Of a stretch of 64,000 nt of DNA, positions 1,689 through 45,567 are shown piece by piece. The stretch's first letter is position 1, and each line of letters begins with the position of its first letter. The stretch lies in the NCBI RefSeq assembly GCF_056746865.1, contig NZ_CM163382.1; one strand, given 5' to 3'. Both the position numbers and the translations under genes were made by a program. A model generated the notes under the pieces. That model was given only the letters and a program-made list of their open reading frames with translations, had not been told where the DNA came from and made no database searches.

Positions 1689-1799
1689 GCTGAAACGGAT
1701 GGCCTGATGTGACGCTGTCTTATCAGGCCAATTGAAGTCTTAAGGTTCACTTAATCTCTGACGCGCATACTCTCCTCCAGGTTAACGGAGGAGAGTGCA

Positions 1800-1889
1800 A
1801 TGAAAAACCGTGTTTATGAAAGTTTAACTACCGTGTTCAGCGTGCTGGTGGTCAGCAGCTTTCTTTATATCTGGTTTGCCACGTACTGA
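1800..1889 (+). CDS. pmrR: Small membrane peptide PmrR (29 aa)
   Basis: Hand translation MKNRVYESLTTVFSVLVVSSFLYIWFATY with stop at 1887-1889; preceded by GGAG; convergent overlap with basS 3' end as in K-12. Confidence 0.75.
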   Translation: MKNRVYESLTTVFSVLVVSSFLYIWFATY

Positions 1890-2965
1890 TCTTTCTTCAG
1901 CCGTACCCAGGCCCGCGTGCCGGAAGTCTCTTGCCGGTTTTGCAGGAAAAACTGCCCGTGATGCAACTGTGTAATGCGGCTGACAATACTTAACCCCAGA
2001 CCAATCCCGCCATAACGGCTGTCCATACGTACAAATGCTTTACTCAACTCCCCGCATTTACTCTCATCAATACCCGGTCCTTCATCTTCAACAGCCATGA
2101 CCGCTCCGCCATCTTCTTGCAGCTTAATCATAATGTTGCTGCCTTGCGGGCTGTAACGATGGGCGTTTTCTACCAGGTTTCGCAATAACATCCGCAGCAG
2201 GGTTGCATCACCCTGAACGGTGATGTCGGCGGCGCTCTCTGGCAATAGCAGGGTTTGCTGTCGCTGGTCGAGCATGGTACTGAGTTCGTCATACGAGGGG
2301 AGAATGACATCTTCCAGCAGTTTTACATGTTGATAATTACCGGAAGAAAATGACTGTCCGGCACGCGCCAGTTGCAGCAGCTGGGAGACGCTCTCCATCA
2401 TCTGATCAAGCCGTGCCACTAACGGTGCTACATCAATGTGATGCGTTTTCGCCAGCAGTTCCAGATGCAAACGCACCCCCGCCAGTGGCGTTCGCAGTTC
2501 GTGCGCGACGTCAGCGGTAAACAACCTTTCGTTATCCAGCGTGTTGGTCAGGCGACTGACCAGATCGTTTAACGCCGAAACCACCGCTTCGATTTCGAGG
2601 GTGGCGCTGTGAATGGCAATGGGCGTTAAGTTGTCGGCGGTGCGCGCTTCCAGCTCTTTTTGCAGCTCCGCCAGCGGGCGGGTGATGCGGCGTACCGCCT
2701 GATAGCAGATAAATAGCGTCAGGCTGACCATAAAGACGCCGGGGACGATCAGGCTGGCGACCGCCTCGCGGATCTCACGCATGATGTGGCGATCGTTGTT
2801 GCGATTGTCGCGTAGCGCCTGCTCAAACAGCTGAATCTGCTCGGTACTTTCATGCCATAGCCAGAAGACGCTGATCAGCTCAAACACCAACAAAATGGCC
2901 CCAATGGTCAATATCAGCCGTTGGCGCAGCGATATTGGTCGGCGCAGAAAACGCATCAGATTCAA
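1865..2965 (-). CDS. basS: Two-component sensor histidine kinase BasS/PmrB
   Basis: 366-aa ORF with HisKA (HELRTPL) and HATPase motifs matching recalled BasS; true start may be a few codons downstream (MRFLRRP). Confidence 0.93.
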   Translation of the reverse strand: MNLMRFLRRPISLRQRLILTIGAILLVFELISVFWLWHESTEQIQLFEQALRDNRNNDRHIMREIREAVASLIVPGVFMVSLTLFICYQAVRRITRPLAELQKELEARTADNLTPIAIHSATLEIEAVVSALNDLVSRLTNTLDNERLFTADVAHELRTPLAGVRLHLELLAKTHHIDVAPLVARLDQMMESVSQLLQLARAGQSFSSGNYQHVKLLEDVILPSYDELSTMLDQRQQTLLLPESAADITVQGDATLLRMLLRNLVENAHRYSPQGSNIMIKLQEDGGAVMAVEDEGPGIDESKCGELSKAFVRMDSRYGGIGLGLSIVSRITQLHHGQFFLQNRQETSGTRAWVRLKKDQYVANQI

Positions 2966-38178: not shown

Positions 38179-38856
38179 CTATTTTCCGATAAATTCAACG
38201 CTGGCGCTGGTGGCATTACCGTCAGCACCAACCGTGACGGTCACTTTGTCGTACGCACGGTCTTCAGGATTGAATACTTCAAACTCAACCTTATTGCCTT
38301 TTACTTCGTAAGAGCCAAAATCAGCGGTTTCTGTTGTTTCCTCGTCATATTCCCGGGCGTATGCCTGCCGGGCAGCCTGCAGGACGGAATCTTTATTAAT
38401 AGTGGTCGTCTGTTTCGGGGAAAAACCGGCAAGTGATGTGACAAATTTCGGACAGACCTTCAGCATATCACCGCGGGTGAATTCCATTCGTACACCAAAT
38501 GCCTGTAAAACGGACACATCACGCTCTGCTATGGAGTGAACGGCTTTTTTGACCATTTCCGGCGCCTGTCCGATTTCCACCTCAACAGCCCTGAATCCCG
38601 TCTGCTGATTACACATTTGTGATGTGGGGATCAGGTTACCGTTAATACTGATACGGCTGCCCAGGAGCGTCTGTACACCATTCGGGCATCCCTGCATCAG
38701 GCCAGTAATACCAATCGTGCCATTTTTCAGCATTACCAGCGCCTGACCATCTTCCGTCATGGTCTGACACCAGCCGTTTTTGACAGCCCAGTTGCCGGCG
38801 GAGGCGGAGAATGATGCCACAGTGAACAGCAGGGGAAAAAGAGCTCTGGTATTCAT
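38179..38856 (-). CDS. Predicted exported protein of unknown function (signal peptide)
   Basis: ORF 38179..38961 trimmed to [23 protein letters not shown]… (Sec signal peptide, AxA cleavage site, GAGG RBS); no family recognised. Confidence 0.6.
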
Positions 38857-39003
38857 GACTGACCTCTGAAATGAACGTACGGTGTTATTGATAATGATGG
38901 AAGGTATGCAGTGACTGTTCAGGGAATGACGTAGCCGTATATTTAGTTTTCTGTTCAACATATTGTCTCCATACCTGTCGGGACGGCTTTGGCAGGCCGG
39001 CGA

Positions 39004-39684
39004 TCACAGGTTAAAGGTGTTGATAAGTTTATGGATGAAAGAGAAATGTGGCAGGGCGGAGATAAAACGCTCTTCAGCGACCAGACTGTGGATGTGGCCT
39101 CTCCGTTCAAACCGTTCTGATGTCAGGCTGACTGATTTGATATCTGCCAGAGGAAAGACCTGCAGTTTTCCCTTCTGTAACGCGATCAGATACCAGCTAC
39201 CGCTGTAATAAATGAGCCGGCAGGGCTCCAGTGACGGATACCATCGCTCAGTCATCAGAGAGATGTGGATACACTGTCTTATTGCCAGGATGAGTTGCGA
39301 GAAACACTCGGGGAACGTTGCAGTGATATCCGGCGCCGGTAGCCAGATAAGGCAGGGAGAGGGCTCCTGGTTGTCGGTAAGACAGGTTATCAGTCGTCCG
39401 TTCCGGAGCGGAAGTATCCGTGCGATCCCGGTATTCTGTATAAAAGAAAGCATTTCAGGGATCGCACCTGGGCTGCTCTGTCGTCTGAGACTGTACCGGC
39501 CATTTCTGTACTCTAAGTCCAGGTGAACCAGACGCTGATGAAAATCGCGCTGTAAAGTACGTTCTGTAACGCCAAATTCATCTGACAGTGTTTTTAGTGA
39601 CAGAGATTCTCCGGCCATCAGTCGGCTGATAATGAGTGATAAGCGAACCGCCAGGCGATCATGCCGGGAACGATTATCAGACAT
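39004..39684 (-). CDS. WYL-domain transcriptional regulator (YfjR-like)
   Basis: 226-aa ORF with N-terminal HTH (…LSDEFGVTERTLQRDF…) and C-terminal WYL-type domain (…YSGSWYLIA…). Confidence 0.7.
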   Translation of the reverse strand: MSDNRSRHDRLAVRLSLIISRLMAGESLSLKTLSDEFGVTERTLQRDFHQRLVHLDLEYRNGRYSLRRQSSPGAIPEMLSFIQNTGIARILPLRNGRLITCLTDNQEPSPCLIWLPAPDITATFPECFSQLILAIRQCIHISLMTERWYPSLEPCRLIYYSGSWYLIALQKGKLQVFPLADIKSVSLTSERFERRGHIHSLVAEERFISALPHFSFIHKLINTFNL

Positions 39685-39886: not shown

Positions 39887-40771
39887 TCAGAACAGACGAT
39901 CCCACAGTGTGACCAGCAAGTGGATAATGCGGTCCCGGGCCTTACGCAGAAGCTGTAACATCCAGGCCGGAAAGCTGAATTGGGCAACGGCAGCGTCAAA
40001 GCTTTTCCCGATGGCGTCACCAAAAGTTTGTTGTGCGTGTTTCCGGGCCTGTTCAGAGCGGTTTTCCCCCCGGATATGTGAATAAACTGCGCTGGTTGCC
40101 TGTGGTGGCAGTGCGTGGATCATCAGCGACACCAGTGCCGGAAGATTCCAGCCGACAGGTGCGGCAACGGAGAGTACCGGAAATGATGACGGGAACAGGG
40201 TTGCCACCCGGGCTGTTACTGTCGCCAGTGAGAGTTCCTGCTGACGGGACGGGCATTTTTCTGTGTCGTTCCATTCTTCAGCAGGAAACACGCGATCGGC
40301 ATGGCTGAGAACAAACAGAAAACGCGAGGGATCTGCACCTTCATTCAGTAAAAACTGATGCATGGCAATATCAGCAGCATACGCACGTTCATCAGCCCGC
40401 AGGATCCAGATAATCAGATCCAGTTCCGGCAGTAACTGACGGTAAAGCTCCCGGTATTCCTGATCATGCTGCGGTGTCTCACCAATGCCGGGCATATCGA
40501 CCAGCGTCATTCTGCGTTCACCGAGCTGCAGGGTAAGACGATGAGCCTGGCGGGTGCAGCCGTTCAGGGGATGCGTGGCGCAGATACGGGACTGAAAAAT
40601 GGCATTACACAGACTGCTTTTGCCGGTGCCGGATTTACCCATAATGCCAATTACGGGCTCGTAATGAATAACACCGTGGAGATGTTCAAGGATTTTCTGG
40701 CGAATTTCTTCAGGAAGAAACGTCAGATATGATTTTACTTGTGCAGAGAGGGAAGAATGGCTGAATGACAT
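39887..40771 (-). CDS. P-loop GTPase, YfjP/YeeP/YkfA family
   Basis: 294-aa ORF with G1 motif GIMGKSGTGKSS and G3 motif DMPGIGE. Confidence 0.8.
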   Translation of the reverse strand: MSFSHSSLSAQVKSYLTFLPEEIRQKILEHLHGVIHYEPVIGIMGKSGTGKSSLCNAIFQSRICATHPLNGCTRQAHRLTLQLGERRMTLVDMPGIGETPQHDQEYRELYRQLLPELDLIIWILRADERAYAADIAMHQFLLNEGADPSRFLFVLSHADRVFPAEEWNDTEKCPSRQQELSLATVTARVATLFPSSFPVLSVAAPVGWNLPALVSLMIHALPPQATSAVYSHIRGENRSEQARKHAQQTFGDAIGKSFDAAVAQFSFPAWMLQLLRKARDRIIHLLVTLWDRLF

Positions 40772-40955
40772 ACCGGTATCCTGTTGATTTCGCTGAACCG
40801 GATCACACTAATCCGGTTTATCATTCAGGTAATATGGACGTGAAAAATGATGGAATGTCTGAATTACGGACATGATTGTTAAAGTGTAATGGAGTATGAA
40901 GTGAGTTTTTCCGAACGGGAACTAATGACATACTGCGGTTTCAGGAGATGAGAGG

Positions 40956-42086
40956 ATGACCGGACGTAAAAACAAATGTGTCAGAAAAAATTGTAACAAT
41001 CAGGTTTTCTCAGTAAAAATGGCAGTGGAGAAAAGACTGTGCAGAAAACATTATGAGAGGTTTTGTGAGCTCAAAAAAAGAAGAGAGCAAAATCCTGTTC
41101 ACAGATTAAATGAAGCATTGCCAAGAAAGATAAAAGGACCAAAAAGTAAGAAAAAATTAGTAAAAGAAAGAGAAATCATTAACAGCAGAAAAAAACATAA
41201 ACAGGAGCAGGGACCATCGCTGACTGAACTTAATAAAAAAGTTCGTGAGATACTGAAAACTCCTGCATGGAGAACGCTGGAAACGAGAATTCGAAGAAAC
41301 GGAATCACATTTAAGTCAAAAGCAGAGTTAGATGCGCTTTCTGAACTTTATGCAATTTATTCATGGGTTTCATATTGCAAACGGGGCGATAATTATTCTG
41401 TGTGGTTTTTGAATTGTCCGGATGTAAATATAAACCTTCATGTGTGCGAATGCCGGTCTTCTGAAAGCGATTGTTATCTGCCATCTCGTTTTATTATTCT
41501 TCCAGCTCCATTAAGGCAAAAAGTAAAAAGAAAATACTCGGCTAATTCGTCTGGGGTACCAGGACATAATGATTCAAAAAGTCTTTATAAGACAGTTTTG
41601 TCTGTTTGTGGTGGGAAAAGAGAAACCGAATTGTTCTTTTATTCACTGCCAGTAAAGACTAATCATCATCCTTACTGGATTAAAAGTGGTGTGGTTAAAA
41701 GATTTCCTCCTGTTTTTGGTTTGTTGTTTTATGAACAGGAAAGATTAACAGGAGGTGTTTTTCGTTATGTGTTGATAAGGTTTTATAATACTTTTAAGGA
41801 GAATTTGTTTTTTGTTGAGATTGTCTCGTGCTGTTTTCTTGTTGAGCTTTTTCATGATATTGATTCGTTTTTTATAAATCAACGATTAAGTAAGCTGGAA
41901 AGTTTTATAGATAAGTGGAGGGAGGGTAAAGAAATCTGGATAAAAGCATATCTACAACTGATACATAATACATTGGGAATAACTGAAACAGAAAAACTCG
42001 TCAATCTATATAATTCATTTTTTACTGATAAAGTGGTTATCTGGGATGAATCAGTAAAAAAAGTTAAGTGGATTTATGAGAAATAG
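40956..42086 (+). CDS. Orphan hypothetical protein in AT-rich cargo locus (Lys/Arg- and Cys-rich N-terminus, aromatic-rich C-terminal half)
   Basis: 376-aa ORF with GGAG-like RBS (ggagatgagagg) before ATG; markedly AT-rich codon usage compared with flanking genes; no family recognised. Confidence 0.6.
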   Translation: MTGRKNKCVRKNCNNQVFSVKMAVEKRLCRKHYERFCELKKRREQNPVHRLNEALPRKIKGPKSKKKLVKEREIINSRKKHKQEQGPSLTELNKKVREILKTPAWRTLETRIRRNGITFKSKAELDALSELYAIYSWVSYCKRGDNYSVWFLNCPDVNINLHVCECRSSESDCYLPSRFIILPAPLRQKVKRKYSANSSGVPGHNDSKSLYKTVLSVCGGKRETELFFYSLPVKTNHHPYWIKSGVVKRFPPVFGLLFYEQERLTGGVFRYVLIRFYNTFKENLFFVEIVSCCFLVELFHDIDSFFINQRLSKLESFIDKWREGKEIWIKAYLQLIHNTLGITETEKLVNLYNSFFTDKVVIWDESVKKVKWIYEK

Positions 42087-42629
42087 TACCATTTAACTGA
42101 AAGCCACCATAACGTCTTTTTGACTACATCCATGATAATGAGTCTCATTTTGATTTCGTTTTTTTTGTTTCGGGAAATTTTCCGAACATCAGTGATAATG
42201 AGGGTTTTGTTGTTTTTGTTTCTGCAATGTTTGAGGGCTGTTCCTGGAGATGATTCGTTGCTTGTGAGCAAGAGGTGGTCCGCTTTACTGGACAAGTTTT
42301 GCATTTGTTGAGTGGTGAAATGGAAGTAAAAAGAGCCCCTTTCTGGCAATGACTGAAAAAGTCAGTAGCGTGTGACAGTAAAAACTAACATAAAGTGATT
42401 ATCGTATGATTATGACAATGACTTATAACTTTTATGAAAAGAACAACAGAAACTATGAAACCATAGCAGATTCCTGAGACCATGTTTTCTGAGGTAGAGA
42501 AAATAATTCAAGAGTAAACCAGTTTGTTTTTTGGTCAGTAAAGAACCATGCCTGATGTGAAAACGGGTAATCAACATTCAGTCTGCATGAATGTCTGAGA
42601 ATGTTGCTAATGTCGGTATGATACTATAT

Positions 42630-42725
42630 ACACGTATTTTACTAAGTATTTTTACTAAGCATTTCAGTAAGTGTTTTACCAGACATACACGTGTTTTCAT
42701 AAACAGCCCTATAAGTGTTTTCATT
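42630..42725. repeat. Cluster of degenerate ~12-bp direct repeats (iteron-like) in AT-rich intergenic region
   Basis: Motif (A/T)(C/A)TAAG(T/C)(A/G)TTTT / ACACGT(A/G)TTTT recurs at about 42634, 42646, 42659, 42671, 42691 and 42715, first four with ~12-bp spacing. Confidence 0.5.
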
Positions 42726-43601
42726 AAGCATTGCTGTACACATTGCTTTGTCTGAAACACATCCAGTTTAGTAAATCTTTACGTTAGCTAAAATCAGTTT
42801 AAAGCTGCTGTAAAACCTTTCTGTTTAAGCAATCAATCTGCTATTCGATTTTACTGATGTTGCGTTTAACCTTTTCTGAGTTTTTGTGTTTTTAGTCGTT
42901 AACCTGAGACAAGTGTCTTTACGTAAAAACGCAAATCCGACTGAGATAACCTGGTGTGATTTACGGTGTGCTTGCGACGATTTTGTTAAATGGTTCTATG
43001 GATGATTTTGTGACGATGAGATTGATGAGATGATTAACTGGCCCTGGTGTTTTTTCTCAGTGCAAGGTGATTATCTTCATCATAAGGCTCTTTTCAGAAA
43101 AAGCGTGATGATTGGTTCTGGTGTTTTGATTCAGATGAGATTTACGTTATCGATGGTTAATCGTTTTTATGGTGTGTTGAAAAGTAACGTTTTCACGATA
43201 AGAAAATCGATTCTGATATTGGTGAACTTTGTTCTTGTGGCAGGGTTATCTGTAAACAGGTTTTAAGTGCGCTATTCGGCTCTGTGATTGAGTTGTGTGG
43301 TTAAGCTGTAGGTTTTGGTGTTGTTGTTGATTTACAGCGCCAGAAAGCGTTCTGATTGCGTTTTTGATGTTTTGTTTGCACGTTCTGTTGATCCGTTTCC
43401 CTTCAGGCTTTGTAGTTTTTAAAAACCATTTATGCCGTTGTTGTGTGTTTTATCCTGCGTGTAGGTTTATCTTTTCTTCGTGGGGGATTCATTCTGTTTT
43501 AATCAGGAGCCATTGGCGTTGCTCAATGGCGGGATGCCGTAAAGTTTTACCGCAGTGATTAATGATGTGAAGTCAATCCAAATCAACGGAGATCTCTCAT
43601 C

Positions 43602-44333
43602 ATGAATCAACCAATACACAATGCTTACTGGTTATCCCGTTTTGAAAGTATTCTCAACAGTGCCCTGGCGCAACACCGTGCCGTCTCGTTAATCCGGGTG
43701 GATTTACGTTTCCCTGAGTATATGCCTGCCACCATCATGGATACCGATTTAGATTCAGCGGTGATTTCTCGTTTTTTTGCATCCCTGAAAGCAAAAATTC
43801 AGGCTTACCAGCGACATAAACGACGTGCCAACAAGCGTGTGCGTGCAACCACTCTGCGTTATTTCTGGTGTCGGGAGTTTGGCAAGGAAAAAGGCAGGAA
43901 ACATTATCACGTGATATTACTGCTCAACAAAGATACCTGGTGCTCGCCAGGGGATTTCACCGTTCCTTCTTCGCTGGCGACACTGATCAAGCTGGCATGG
44001 TGTAGTGCTCTGCATCTTGAGCCCTGGCAGGGTAATGGACTGGTTCATTTTTCCAGGCGGACGCCTTTCCGTAAACCGACATCATCTGATGCTCGCCCTT
44101 CTTCCGATGATACGCCTTTGTCGGGTGGATGTTCTGATACCAGGAAGGCTTCAGACAAAAAGCCGGGTGAAGCCGCTGTTCTCTGGATCAAGCGTGGTGA
44201 TGTGGAAGCGCTGCAGAAAGCCCGGAACAGAGCCAGTTATCTCGTGAAATATGAGACGAAGCAGCATGACGGTTCCGGGCAACGTAATTATGGTTGCAGT
44301 CGTGGGCCGGGGCGTCTGCTGGATGGCAGGTGA
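43602..44333 (+). CDS. Inovirus Gp2-like / YagK-YfjJ family protein with HUH-type and YxxKYxxK motifs
   Basis: 243-aa ORF; contains HYHVILLL (HUH-like) and SYLVKYETK (rolling-circle Rep motif-3-like). Confidence 0.7.
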   Translation: MNQPIHNAYWLSRFESILNSALAQHRAVSLIRVDLRFPEYMPATIMDTDLDSAVISRFFASLKAKIQAYQRHKRRANKRVRATTLRYFWCREFGKEKGRKHYHVILLLNKDTWCSPGDFTVPSSLATLIKLAWCSALHLEPWQGNGLVHFSRRTPFRKPTSSDARPSSDDTPLSGGCSDTRKASDKKPGEAAVLWIKRGDVEALQKARNRASYLVKYETKQHDGSGQRNYGCSRGPGRLLDGR

Positions 44334-45330: not shown

Positions 45331-45567
45331 ATGTTGACCTCAATGACAGGTCACGACAGCGTATTGCTGCGTGCCGACGATCCCCTGATCGACATGAACT
45401 ACATCACCAGCTTCACTGGTATGACCGACAAATGGTTTTACAAGCTGATCAGTGAAGGCCATTTCCCTAAACCCATCAAACTGGGGCGCAGCAGCCGCTG
45501 GTACAAAAGTGAAGTGGAGCAGTGGATGCAGCAACGAATCGAGGCATCACGAGGGGCAGCAGCATGA
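45331..45567 (+). CDS. alpA: AlpA-family phage regulatory protein (HTH)
   Basis: 78-aa ORF with AlpA-like core (…ITSFTGMTDKWFYKLISEGHFPKPIKLGRSSRWYKSEVEQWMQQR…). Confidence 0.8.
   Translation: MLTSMTGHDSVLLRADDPLIDMNYITSFTGMTDKWFYKLISEGHFPKPIKLGRSSRWYKSEVEQWMQQRIEASRGAAA

Follow-up and report, generated by a model that had tools for sequence, protein, structure and literature searches.

An undescribed Enterobacterales gene family at the junction of two modules in CP4-type genomic islands

The orphan gene and its fixed place between two island modules

We analyzed a 64,000-nucleotide stretch of DNA from contig NZ_CM163382.1 (NCBI RefSeq assembly GCF_056746865.1), referred to here at its full length as the window, with a focus on one gene that belongs to an undescribed, Enterobacterales-restricted family. 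This orphan gene (40956..42086, plus strand; 376 codons, ATG start) is the sole long open reading frame (ORF) between a GTPase gene and a gene of the Gp2 family, and inspection of the sequence places an AGGAG motif 8 nt 5' of its start codon. Across approximately 40.7-43.6 kb the fraction of G+C (GC) is 0.30-0.41, down from 0.50-0.56 on either side. These observations agree with an earlier note on this DNA, made from the letters alone, which had described an AT-rich interval holding one well-formed ORF with a ribosome-binding site. On the left lies a YfjP/YeeP-type GTPase gene (39887..40771, minus strand), the first gene of a module that also encodes CbtA, RadC, DUF932 and antirestriction proteins; its product matches Era/Der-type GTPase domains and is 35% identical to YfjP of E. 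coli K-12 (E value 5e-63). On the right are a gene of the Gp2/YagK-YfjJ family (43602..44333, plus strand), whose product is 30% identical to K-12 YfjJ, and an alpA-like gene (45331..45567), so the neighbours had been named correctly before. The surrounding island is of the CP4-57/CP4-44 type and is already well known. In most pathogenicity and fitness islands of E. coli, the block of GTPase, DUF932, antirestriction, RadC and CbtA genes and the block of alpA and YfjJ-like genes are both present, and the orphan family, structurally unmatched and uncharacterised, is placed exactly at their junction. A preprint on islands in Pseudomonas lists alpA, a Gp2-like protein, RadC and a helix-turn-helix (HTH) protein as the likely core functions of a related class (10.1101/2024.08.29.610337).

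The ORF at 40956..42086 is a functional gene and not a chance reading frame, because it is under purifying selection and is maintained intact. Compared with the copy at locus L012, which is 96.6% identical, the ratio of non-synonymous to synonymous substitution rates (dN/dS) is 0.14, with 24 synonymous and 14 non-synonymous changes; compared with the copy at locus L020, which is 86.5% identical (80% at the protein level), it is 0.31. The gene occurs in 462 of 5426 complete E. coli genomes, and 458 of the 462 copies are full length, here meaning at least 80% of the length, at 95-99% identity. RefSeq lists the product as a 'hypothetical protein' (WP_000147745.1, strain SMS-3-5) with no pseudogene flag. 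The constraint is distributed unevenly along the protein: the N-terminal segment that holds a zinc knuckle (codons 1-50) is the most constrained, with a dN/dS of 0.04, the basic linker is nearly neutral (approximately 1), and the helical half shows the oldest divergence (dS 0.5-0.9), still under purifying selection (dN/dS 0.2-0.46). In pairwise comparisons over 50-codon windows, no segment had a dN/dS above 1.

It is scarcely credible, against this background, that the ORF is a silenced, decaying remnant devoid of present function. The DNA is AT-rich, of a kind usually silenced by H-NS, and the island is degenerate in strain SMS-3-5, where several insertion sequence (IS) elements and frameshifted genes lie close by; these features would suit a remnant, but they stand against the purifying selection in both comparisons (dN/dS 0.14-0.31), the near-complete retention of full-length copies, and the existence of 30%-identical homologues at the same position in other genera. 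The proposal that the gene is an H-NS-silenced regulator, also made in the earlier note, is plausible.

The homologues in other genera reveal that the family is a fixed component of CP4/YeeP-type genomic islands. In Klebsiella, proteins of 383 amino acids (aa) that are 30% identical to the window protein are encoded in the same place, head-to-head with the GTPase gene of the CbtA/CbeA-RadC-DUF932 module, and are followed by alpA and then by the Gp2/REP_ORF2 gene. The same arrangement was observed in K. oxytoca, Atlantibacter, Citrobacter freundii and Enterobacter hormaechei, as well as at the loci of the family members P0033, P0021 and P0002. Across the loci examined, which come from E. coli, Klebsiella, Citrobacter, Atlantibacter, Enterobacter and Salmonella-like contigs, the orphan gene is head-to-head with the GTPase gene in every locus for which context is available (L001-L018, L020, L022-L023), with no exceptions.

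Three allele classes on an exchangeable cassette

The occupants of the slot fall into three classes. The 376-aa protein (window, L001, L012) and the 407-aa protein (L008, L014) both carry the zinc knuckle, whereas the third class, a protein of 310-316 aa (L006, L007, L013; the 316-aa allele), lacks it and is accompanied by a convergent gene with a 262-aa product. Although pairwise identity among the classes is only 17-21%, they are remote homologues of one family: a comparison with hhalign joined the 376/383-aa class to the 407-aa class with a probability of 99.3% over 351 columns (E value 1.5e-20), and the alignments to the 316-aa class reached 92% (E value 6e-7) and 94% (E value 1.6e-7). All three classes are common in E. 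coli, with 462, 976 and 741 occurrences of the 376-, 407- and 316-aa classes, respectively, in the same set of 5426 complete genomes. The convergent companion gene is present in all cassettes with the 316-aa allele (L006:4677-5465, L007:4398-5207 and L013:3673-4461, all on the minus strand) and encodes 262-269 aa; the C-terminus of its product shows a weak, non-significant ribbon-helix-helix (RHH) likeness (RHH_1, E value 0.14; RepB-RCR_reg, E value 0.32).

The islands that carry these divergent alleles are otherwise nearly the same. Across loci with different alleles, the flanking proteins are 93-98% (GTPase), 99-100% (WYL-type regulator) and 88-100% (Gp2) identical. The window and L013, which has the 316-aa allele, share a Gp2 protein that is 100% identical and a GTPase that is 93% identical, and the window and L008, which has the 407-aa allele, share a WYL regulator that is 100% identical. 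At the nucleotide level, similarity ends at 40846/40847 and returns at 42499/42500 in all five of the loci with other alleles that were compared (L006, L007, L008, L013 and L014). Since the flanks are almost unchanged and the junctions are identical in all five comparisons, the orphan gene resides on a defined, AT-rich, replaceable cassette of 1652 nt (40848..42499, plus strand; GC 0.35), and this cassette has been exchanged between almost identical island backbones in E. coli. The alternative cassettes measure 1626 nt for the 407-aa allele and 2306-2324 nt for the 316-aa allele together with its companion gene, and have a GC of 0.33-0.42.

Behind the orphan gene, the window cassette ends in a non-coding 3' tail of 413 nt (42087..42499) that is specific to the 376-aa allele. 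This tail is 95% identical to that of L012, slightly below the identity of the ORF, it has no counterpart in the loci with other alleles, and it holds no ORF that is intact in L012 or in L020. In the loci with the 316-aa allele, the right junction coincides with a hairpin and a U-run behind it (L006:6017-6040 and its equivalents), which together resemble a terminator, while the corresponding structure in the window (42510-42535) is weak and non-significant.

The slot had been suspected to be a hotspot for variable cargo. Its sharp junctions and variable content fit that description. The orphan gene itself is not free cargo, however, because the occupants of the slot are remote homologues and are always head-to-head with the GTPase gene, in a position that is fixed across genera. 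The closest parallel in K-12 is the yfjJ-yfjP junction of CP4-57, which holds abpAB, yfjM and rnlAB and likewise has variable content between the same two modules; the earlier statement that rnlAB lies at a related position in CP4-57 is therefore correct. In CP4-57, all genes run in the same direction and the occupants are unrelated defence genes, whereas at the orphan locus the two modules diverge and the occupant always belongs to one family. The cassette also resembles the immunity regions of lambdoid phages and the defence hotspots of P2 and P4 in being a short, sharp-edged segment recombined between conserved flanks; the P2/P4 hotspots differ in that they hold unrelated genes instead of remote homologues.

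Protein features, predicted structure and family searches

The N-terminus of the orphan protein carries a motif of the form Cys-x4-Cys-x15-Cys-x2-His (KCVRKNC...RLCRKHY; 40977..41054, plus strand, codons 8-33). In a comparison of 10 diverse copies of the module, the second one of P0033 among them, the four putative ligands C8, C13, C29 and H32 did not vary, and neither did R27, L28 and Y33. Because all four ligands are invariant across these copies, the motif is a putative zinc site, and the paired cysteines, for which such a site had been suggested, fit this prediction. The family member P0033 (L017:7001-8398; 465 aa) contains two tandem Cys2-Cys-His modules, which shows that the knuckle is a movable unit. 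Two further features given in the earlier note were confirmed by counting: the Lys/Arg-rich N-terminus has a net charge of +22 over residues 1-100, and the C-terminal part contains 24 Phe, Tyr or Trp residues within positions 251-376. Only two residues, W105 and E288, are the same in all 24 family members, and R114, Y135, P183, L210, Y211, P239, P252, L256 and L287 are nearly invariant; no catalytic constellation was seen among the conserved residues of these members.

The quality of the predicted structure depended on the depth of the alignment. An initial AlphaFold model, for which 11 sequences were used, was of poor quality, with a predicted local distance difference test (pLDDT) score of 59, whereas the AlphaFold2 (AF2) model based on 24 sequences, in which diverse relatives had been added (alignment A6), reached a pLDDT of 82 and a predicted template modelling (pTM) score of 0.70. 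For the knuckle, pLDDT is 88-92. In this model, a beta-hairpin knuckle with helices (residues 4-54) is followed by a long basic helix and by a helical body with two short hairpins. Neither residue conservation, nor the AF2 model, nor the fold search revealed a nuclease, nucleoside triphosphatase (NTPase), TIR, pore or transmembrane signature in the orphan protein.

The inability to place the protein in any family proved justified in all the databases that we searched. Pfam gave nothing significant for the single 376-aa protein (best match, the PX domain with an E value of 6), for 11 full-length family members, or for 10 isolated zinc modules. For the 376-aa protein, NCBIfam and PHROGs also gave nothing significant, with best E values of 0.15 and 0.099, respectively, and no family of PADLOC-DB v2 matched it at an E value of 1 or below; in the same database, neither the 407-aa allele, the 316-aa allele nor the 262-aa companion was matched at an E value of 0.01 or below. 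Searches of the PDB by sequence and by profile were likewise without a significant result, the best E value being 1.2 for the isolated zinc-module profile, and the fold search with the AF2 model found no characterised structural relative. Sequence searches against 5.8 billion and 1.84 billion proteins returned only unnamed proteins, from E. coli, Klebsiella, Atlantibacter, Citrobacter and Enterobacter. A profile search of genome contigs with a narrower family alignment found three further species, and Foldseek against AFDB50 returned only uncharacterised Enterobacterales proteins and extended the range to Salmonella, Providencia, Serratia and Ewingella. Every homologue in these genera is unnamed. 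No description of the gene family, the cassette structure, the shared hinge or the iteron-bearing leader was found in the literature that could be searched, and databases list the gene only as 'hypothetical protein'. Two findings that would have spoken against an undescribed function, namely homology to a housekeeping or structural family and an ORF that is not intact in relatives, were both looked for, and neither was encountered.

Several specific candidates were considered and rejected. Kinship with YfjH or AbpA/YfjL of K-12 received an hhalign probability below 1%. An HNH or beta-beta-alpha-metal nuclease is contradicted by the absence of a Pfam match for the 11 members and 10 modules and by the invariance of only the metal ligands plus R27, L28 and Y33. 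Small Cys/His metal-binding modules do occur in proteins of P4-like elements, such as the Ogr/Delta proteins of P2 and P4 and the HNH-type treble-clef fingers, and in this respect the orphan protein is similar to them. The zinc module is tandemly duplicated in P4 Delta, as it is in P0033. The finger of Ogr, however, has the spacing C-x2-C-x22-C-x4-C, compared with C-x4-C-x15-C-x2-H in the orphan knuckle, and the Ogr_Delta profile did not match, so that an Ogr/Delta zinc-finger activator was rejected as well; the catalytic His-Asn-His of the HNH type is also absent from the orphan protein. A toxin-antitoxin pair of the RnlAB type is at odds with the single gene in the window cassette and with the lack of any toxin family in Pfam, NCBIfam and PADLOC. 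Finally, an origin of the gene in phages or plasmids was rejected, as tblastn in phages was negative and only two non-mobilizable 'plasmid' records matched.

These searches bear directly on the possibility, put forward in the earlier note, that the orphan gene by itself provides defence or abortive infection. Its product would act against phages or plasmids, and the allele classes would recognise different invaders. The setting is compatible with such a role: the cassette is hypervariable and AT-rich, it has sharp edges and conserved flanks within a mobile island, the genes nearby include an antirestriction gene and one for a WYL regulator, the family is very polymorphic and limited to one bacterial order, and the yfjJ-yfjP interval of K-12 CP4-57 holds abpAB and rnlAB. 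However, the PADLOC scan that had been recommended yielded no model, those for RnlA included, for any of the three alleles or the companion gene, and the family is unrelated to AbpA and YfjH. The protein has none of the enzymatic, pore or membrane signatures listed above and no conserved catalytic residues, and no segment shows a dN/dS above 1. Moreover, known hotspots hold unrelated systems, whereas all occupants of this slot are homologous and keep a fixed position across genera. We therefore regard a defence or abortive-infection factor as unlikely.

The shared hinge, the non-coding leader and a possible regulatory role

Between the start codon of the GTPase gene and the cassette junction lies a segment of 76 bp (40772..40847), the hinge, that is common to all alleles and 97-100% identical among loci with different alleles. 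It contains a -10-like GTAATAT at 40829-40835 that is conserved in the hinges of four distant loci, those of Klebsiella, Enterobacter and L017 among them, and a perfect palindrome, AACCGGAT-N7-ATCCGGTT, at 40796-40818, which occurs once in the window versus 0 expected. An outer, imperfect inverted repeat of 16 nt (40761-40776 / 40813-40828) encloses this palindrome and overlaps the GTPase start codon. The hinge palindromes are centred on CCGG, and the nested repeats look like operators. Only 25-29 nt separate the junction from the start of the 407- and 316-aa alleles, and because of this short distance their promoter is predicted to lie in the shared hinge, from which all alleles would be transcribed. 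The family comprises ancient alleles that are swapped on a defined cassette, presumably under this one promoter. Such a placement weakens a model with allele-specific operators, and it also sets the cassette apart from lambdoid immunity regions. The latter carry their own operators, whereas the putative promoter region of the orphan cassette is common to all alleles.

The head-to-head arrangement raises the possibility that the orphan protein is a partner of the adjacent GTPase, that is, an effector, adaptor, or exchange or activating factor encoded in a two-gene unit. In all examined loci, from six genera, the two genes are adjacent and separated by a shared control region of 94-184 bp. The GTPase is also weakly similar to dynamin-like proteins of the Eleos defence system: its C-terminal part (residues 184-286) matches LeoBC (3.2e-8) and its G domain matches LeoA (1e-3). 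Nevertheless, there is no visible co-variation between the two proteins, since the GTPase remains 93-98% identical among E. coli loci in which the alleles share 17-21% (it is 52% identical in Klebsiella). In addition, K-12 yfjP lacks such a neighbour, and no family member with a K-12 gene name appeared in the sequence searches. A dedicated GTPase partner thus appears quite improbable.

On the other side of the cassette, the Gp2/YfjJ-like gene is preceded by an AT-rich non-coding leader of 1.1 kb (42500..43601). The absence of a convincing ORF in the approximately 1.5 kb after the orphan gene, as originally described, holds across eight related loci, in which no ORF is intact. We rejected small conserved proteins in 42.1-43.6 kb, because every ORF there is broken in some loci and because the indels in the iteron array are not multiples of three. 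A structured RNA in the non-coding region was also rejected: Rfam 15 gave no match over 40.7-43.7 kb, either at the gathering score or at an E value of 1 or below, and covariation provided no support (RNAalifold covariation term 0.11). The leader is widespread: 1877 of the 5426 complete E. coli genomes have it, for the most part at 80-90% identity, and most of these records have no annotated gene there. Its core (42587-42886) hardly changes across seven loci in which the adjacent protein is completely different. In some loci the leader is interrupted by an insertion with a gene for a 176-aa protein (L008:6787-7317, minus strand), which has a faint match to a PHROG of D5-like transcriptional regulators (E value 0.003). 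At L017, approximately 1.6 kb without a called gene precede the YagK_YfjJ gene.

Within the near-invariant core lies an iteron-like array (42623..42738, plus strand). The motif TAAGYRTTK is found there in five copies on one strand within 91 nt, interleaved with TACACRTRTTTT units; in the whole window it has 10 matches versus 4.6 expected, a count that was reached in 0 of 100 shuffles. Loci differ in how many units they have: the window is one 26-nt unit short, and L007 has 52 nt extra. The downstream Gp2-family protein contains an HUH-like motif (RKHYHVILLL), of which HYH(V/L)IL is common with K-12 YfjJ, and matches PHROGs of replication initiation (phrog_25019, 2.6e-33; phrog_3584, 1e-6); Gp2 homologues carry PF11726 and PF23343. 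From these features we infer that the array may be the binding site of the Gp2/YfjJ-like protein and a candidate origin. It resembles the iteron origins of plasmids and phage-inducible islands in its short same-strand repeats, copy-number variation, AT-richness and location 5' of an initiator-like gene. Unlike typical iteron origins, the array lies approximately 0.9 kb from the Gp2 gene, and the Klebsiella-type relatives lack it.

Such an array could suggest that the orphan protein assists the island in replication or partition by loading or regulating the Gp2/YfjJ-like protein at the iterons. The gene is located directly 5' of the iteron-bearing leader and the initiator-like gene, and the protein has predicted nucleic-acid-binding features. 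This role is nonetheless very improbable, given that the iterons and Gp2 are nearly invariant while the orphan protein is hypervariable, and that Klebsiella-type loci keep the gene without iterons, with alpA sitting between the gene and Gp2.

Tentatively, we favour another possibility, that the orphan protein is a non-enzymatic DNA-binding regulator or sensor at the hinge of the two divergent island modules. Binding of nucleic acid by the knuckle and the basic segment is proposed because of the invariant zinc ligands, the charge of +22, the lowest dN/dS in the knuckle (0.04) and the member with two knuckles. The hinge or a nearby site would be the likely target, because the knuckle/basic part is the most constrained of the protein. 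A non-enzymatic function is suggested by the invariance of only W105 and E288, the nearly invariant positions being R, Y, P and L. The divergent helical body, for its part, may recognise a partner that varies, for example a protein from a helper phage, from a plasmid or from a co-resident island. In this way, the orphan protein would set the timing of expression of the GTPase/antirestriction/CbtA operon on one side and of the Gp2-alpA module on the other, while the iterons would serve as binding sites of the Gp2/YfjJ-like protein that mark an origin. The DNA-binding part would be modular, because the 316-aa allele lacks the knuckle and its cassette adds a gene with a weak RHH_1 match.

Several observations weigh against a hinge regulator. 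If the hinge were the DNA target, the knuckle would be expected in every allele, yet the 316-aa allele is entirely without it, and the RHH match of the companion is non-significant (E value 0.14). No family in Pfam or the PDB matched the zinc module, and when the hinge was scanned with a promoter consensus, no strong sigma-70 promoter came up; the hinge has a poor -35 element. The proposed partner of the helical body is purely hypothetical, and the pairwise dN/dS, which exceeds 1 in no segment, does not reveal positive selection on a sensor surface. In addition, the equivalent junction of K-12 CP4-57 holds true defence genes, which favours a defence function instead.

The mode of action of such a regulator would be similar to that of the Stl master repressors of staphylococcal pathogenicity islands (SaPIs), reportedly described by Tormo-Mas et al. 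in 2010, from which we draw the functional analogy. Stl is released from hinge DNA by a protein encoded by the helper. For the orphan protein, the zinc knuckle, the basic segment and the hinge palindromes are indirect evidence of such binding to the hinge. Both Stl and the orphan gene are single hinge genes of a mobile island, divergent from the neighbouring operon, and both are extremely divergent between otherwise similar islands, the orphan alleles being 17-21% identical on backbones of 88-100%. Both combine a small N-terminal DNA-binding part, putative in the orphan protein, with a larger helical body, and both adjoin a replication module with iterons, which at the orphan locus are candidates. 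Unlike Stl, with which it has no similarity of sequence or fold, the orphan protein would use a zinc knuckle instead of a helix-turn-helix, and one allele lacks this part. The likeness is one of functional class and not of homology or descent. Genes that control a mobile island from its hinge are a kind already known, to which the orphan gene would belong.

A more far-reaching version, which we consider doubtful, is that of a polymorphic sensor at the control point of the commonest type of E. coli island. Every allele would be specific for another phage or plasmid, be it an invader or a helper, and would then either activate the antirestriction/toxin module and replication from the iteron region, or block the invader. 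If true, it would imply a new fold and a new logic of defence or hitch-hiking in roughly a third of E. coli genomes. The orphan gene is a good experimental target, as it is widespread, structurally unmatched and situated at what would be the control point of islands of a very common type. The three cassettes, the 76-bp hinge and the iteron array offer testable handles on the regulation and replication of these supposedly cryptic islands and on their conflict with phages and plasmids.

Three further observations concern the rest of the window. The gene at 39004-39684 (minus strand), labelled 'helix-turn-helix transcriptional regulator' in RefSeq, encodes an HTH-WYL protein (PADLOC WYL model, 2.6e-18) and is absent from some otherwise identical islands (L007, L013). 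A core island gene at 38179-38961 (minus strand), with an annotated product of 225 aa and a start resembling a signal peptide, had no family match. Distant from the orphan gene, positions 1731-1896 (plus strand) contain a full-length match to the enterobacterial small RNA STnc630 (Rfam RF02052, 181 bits).

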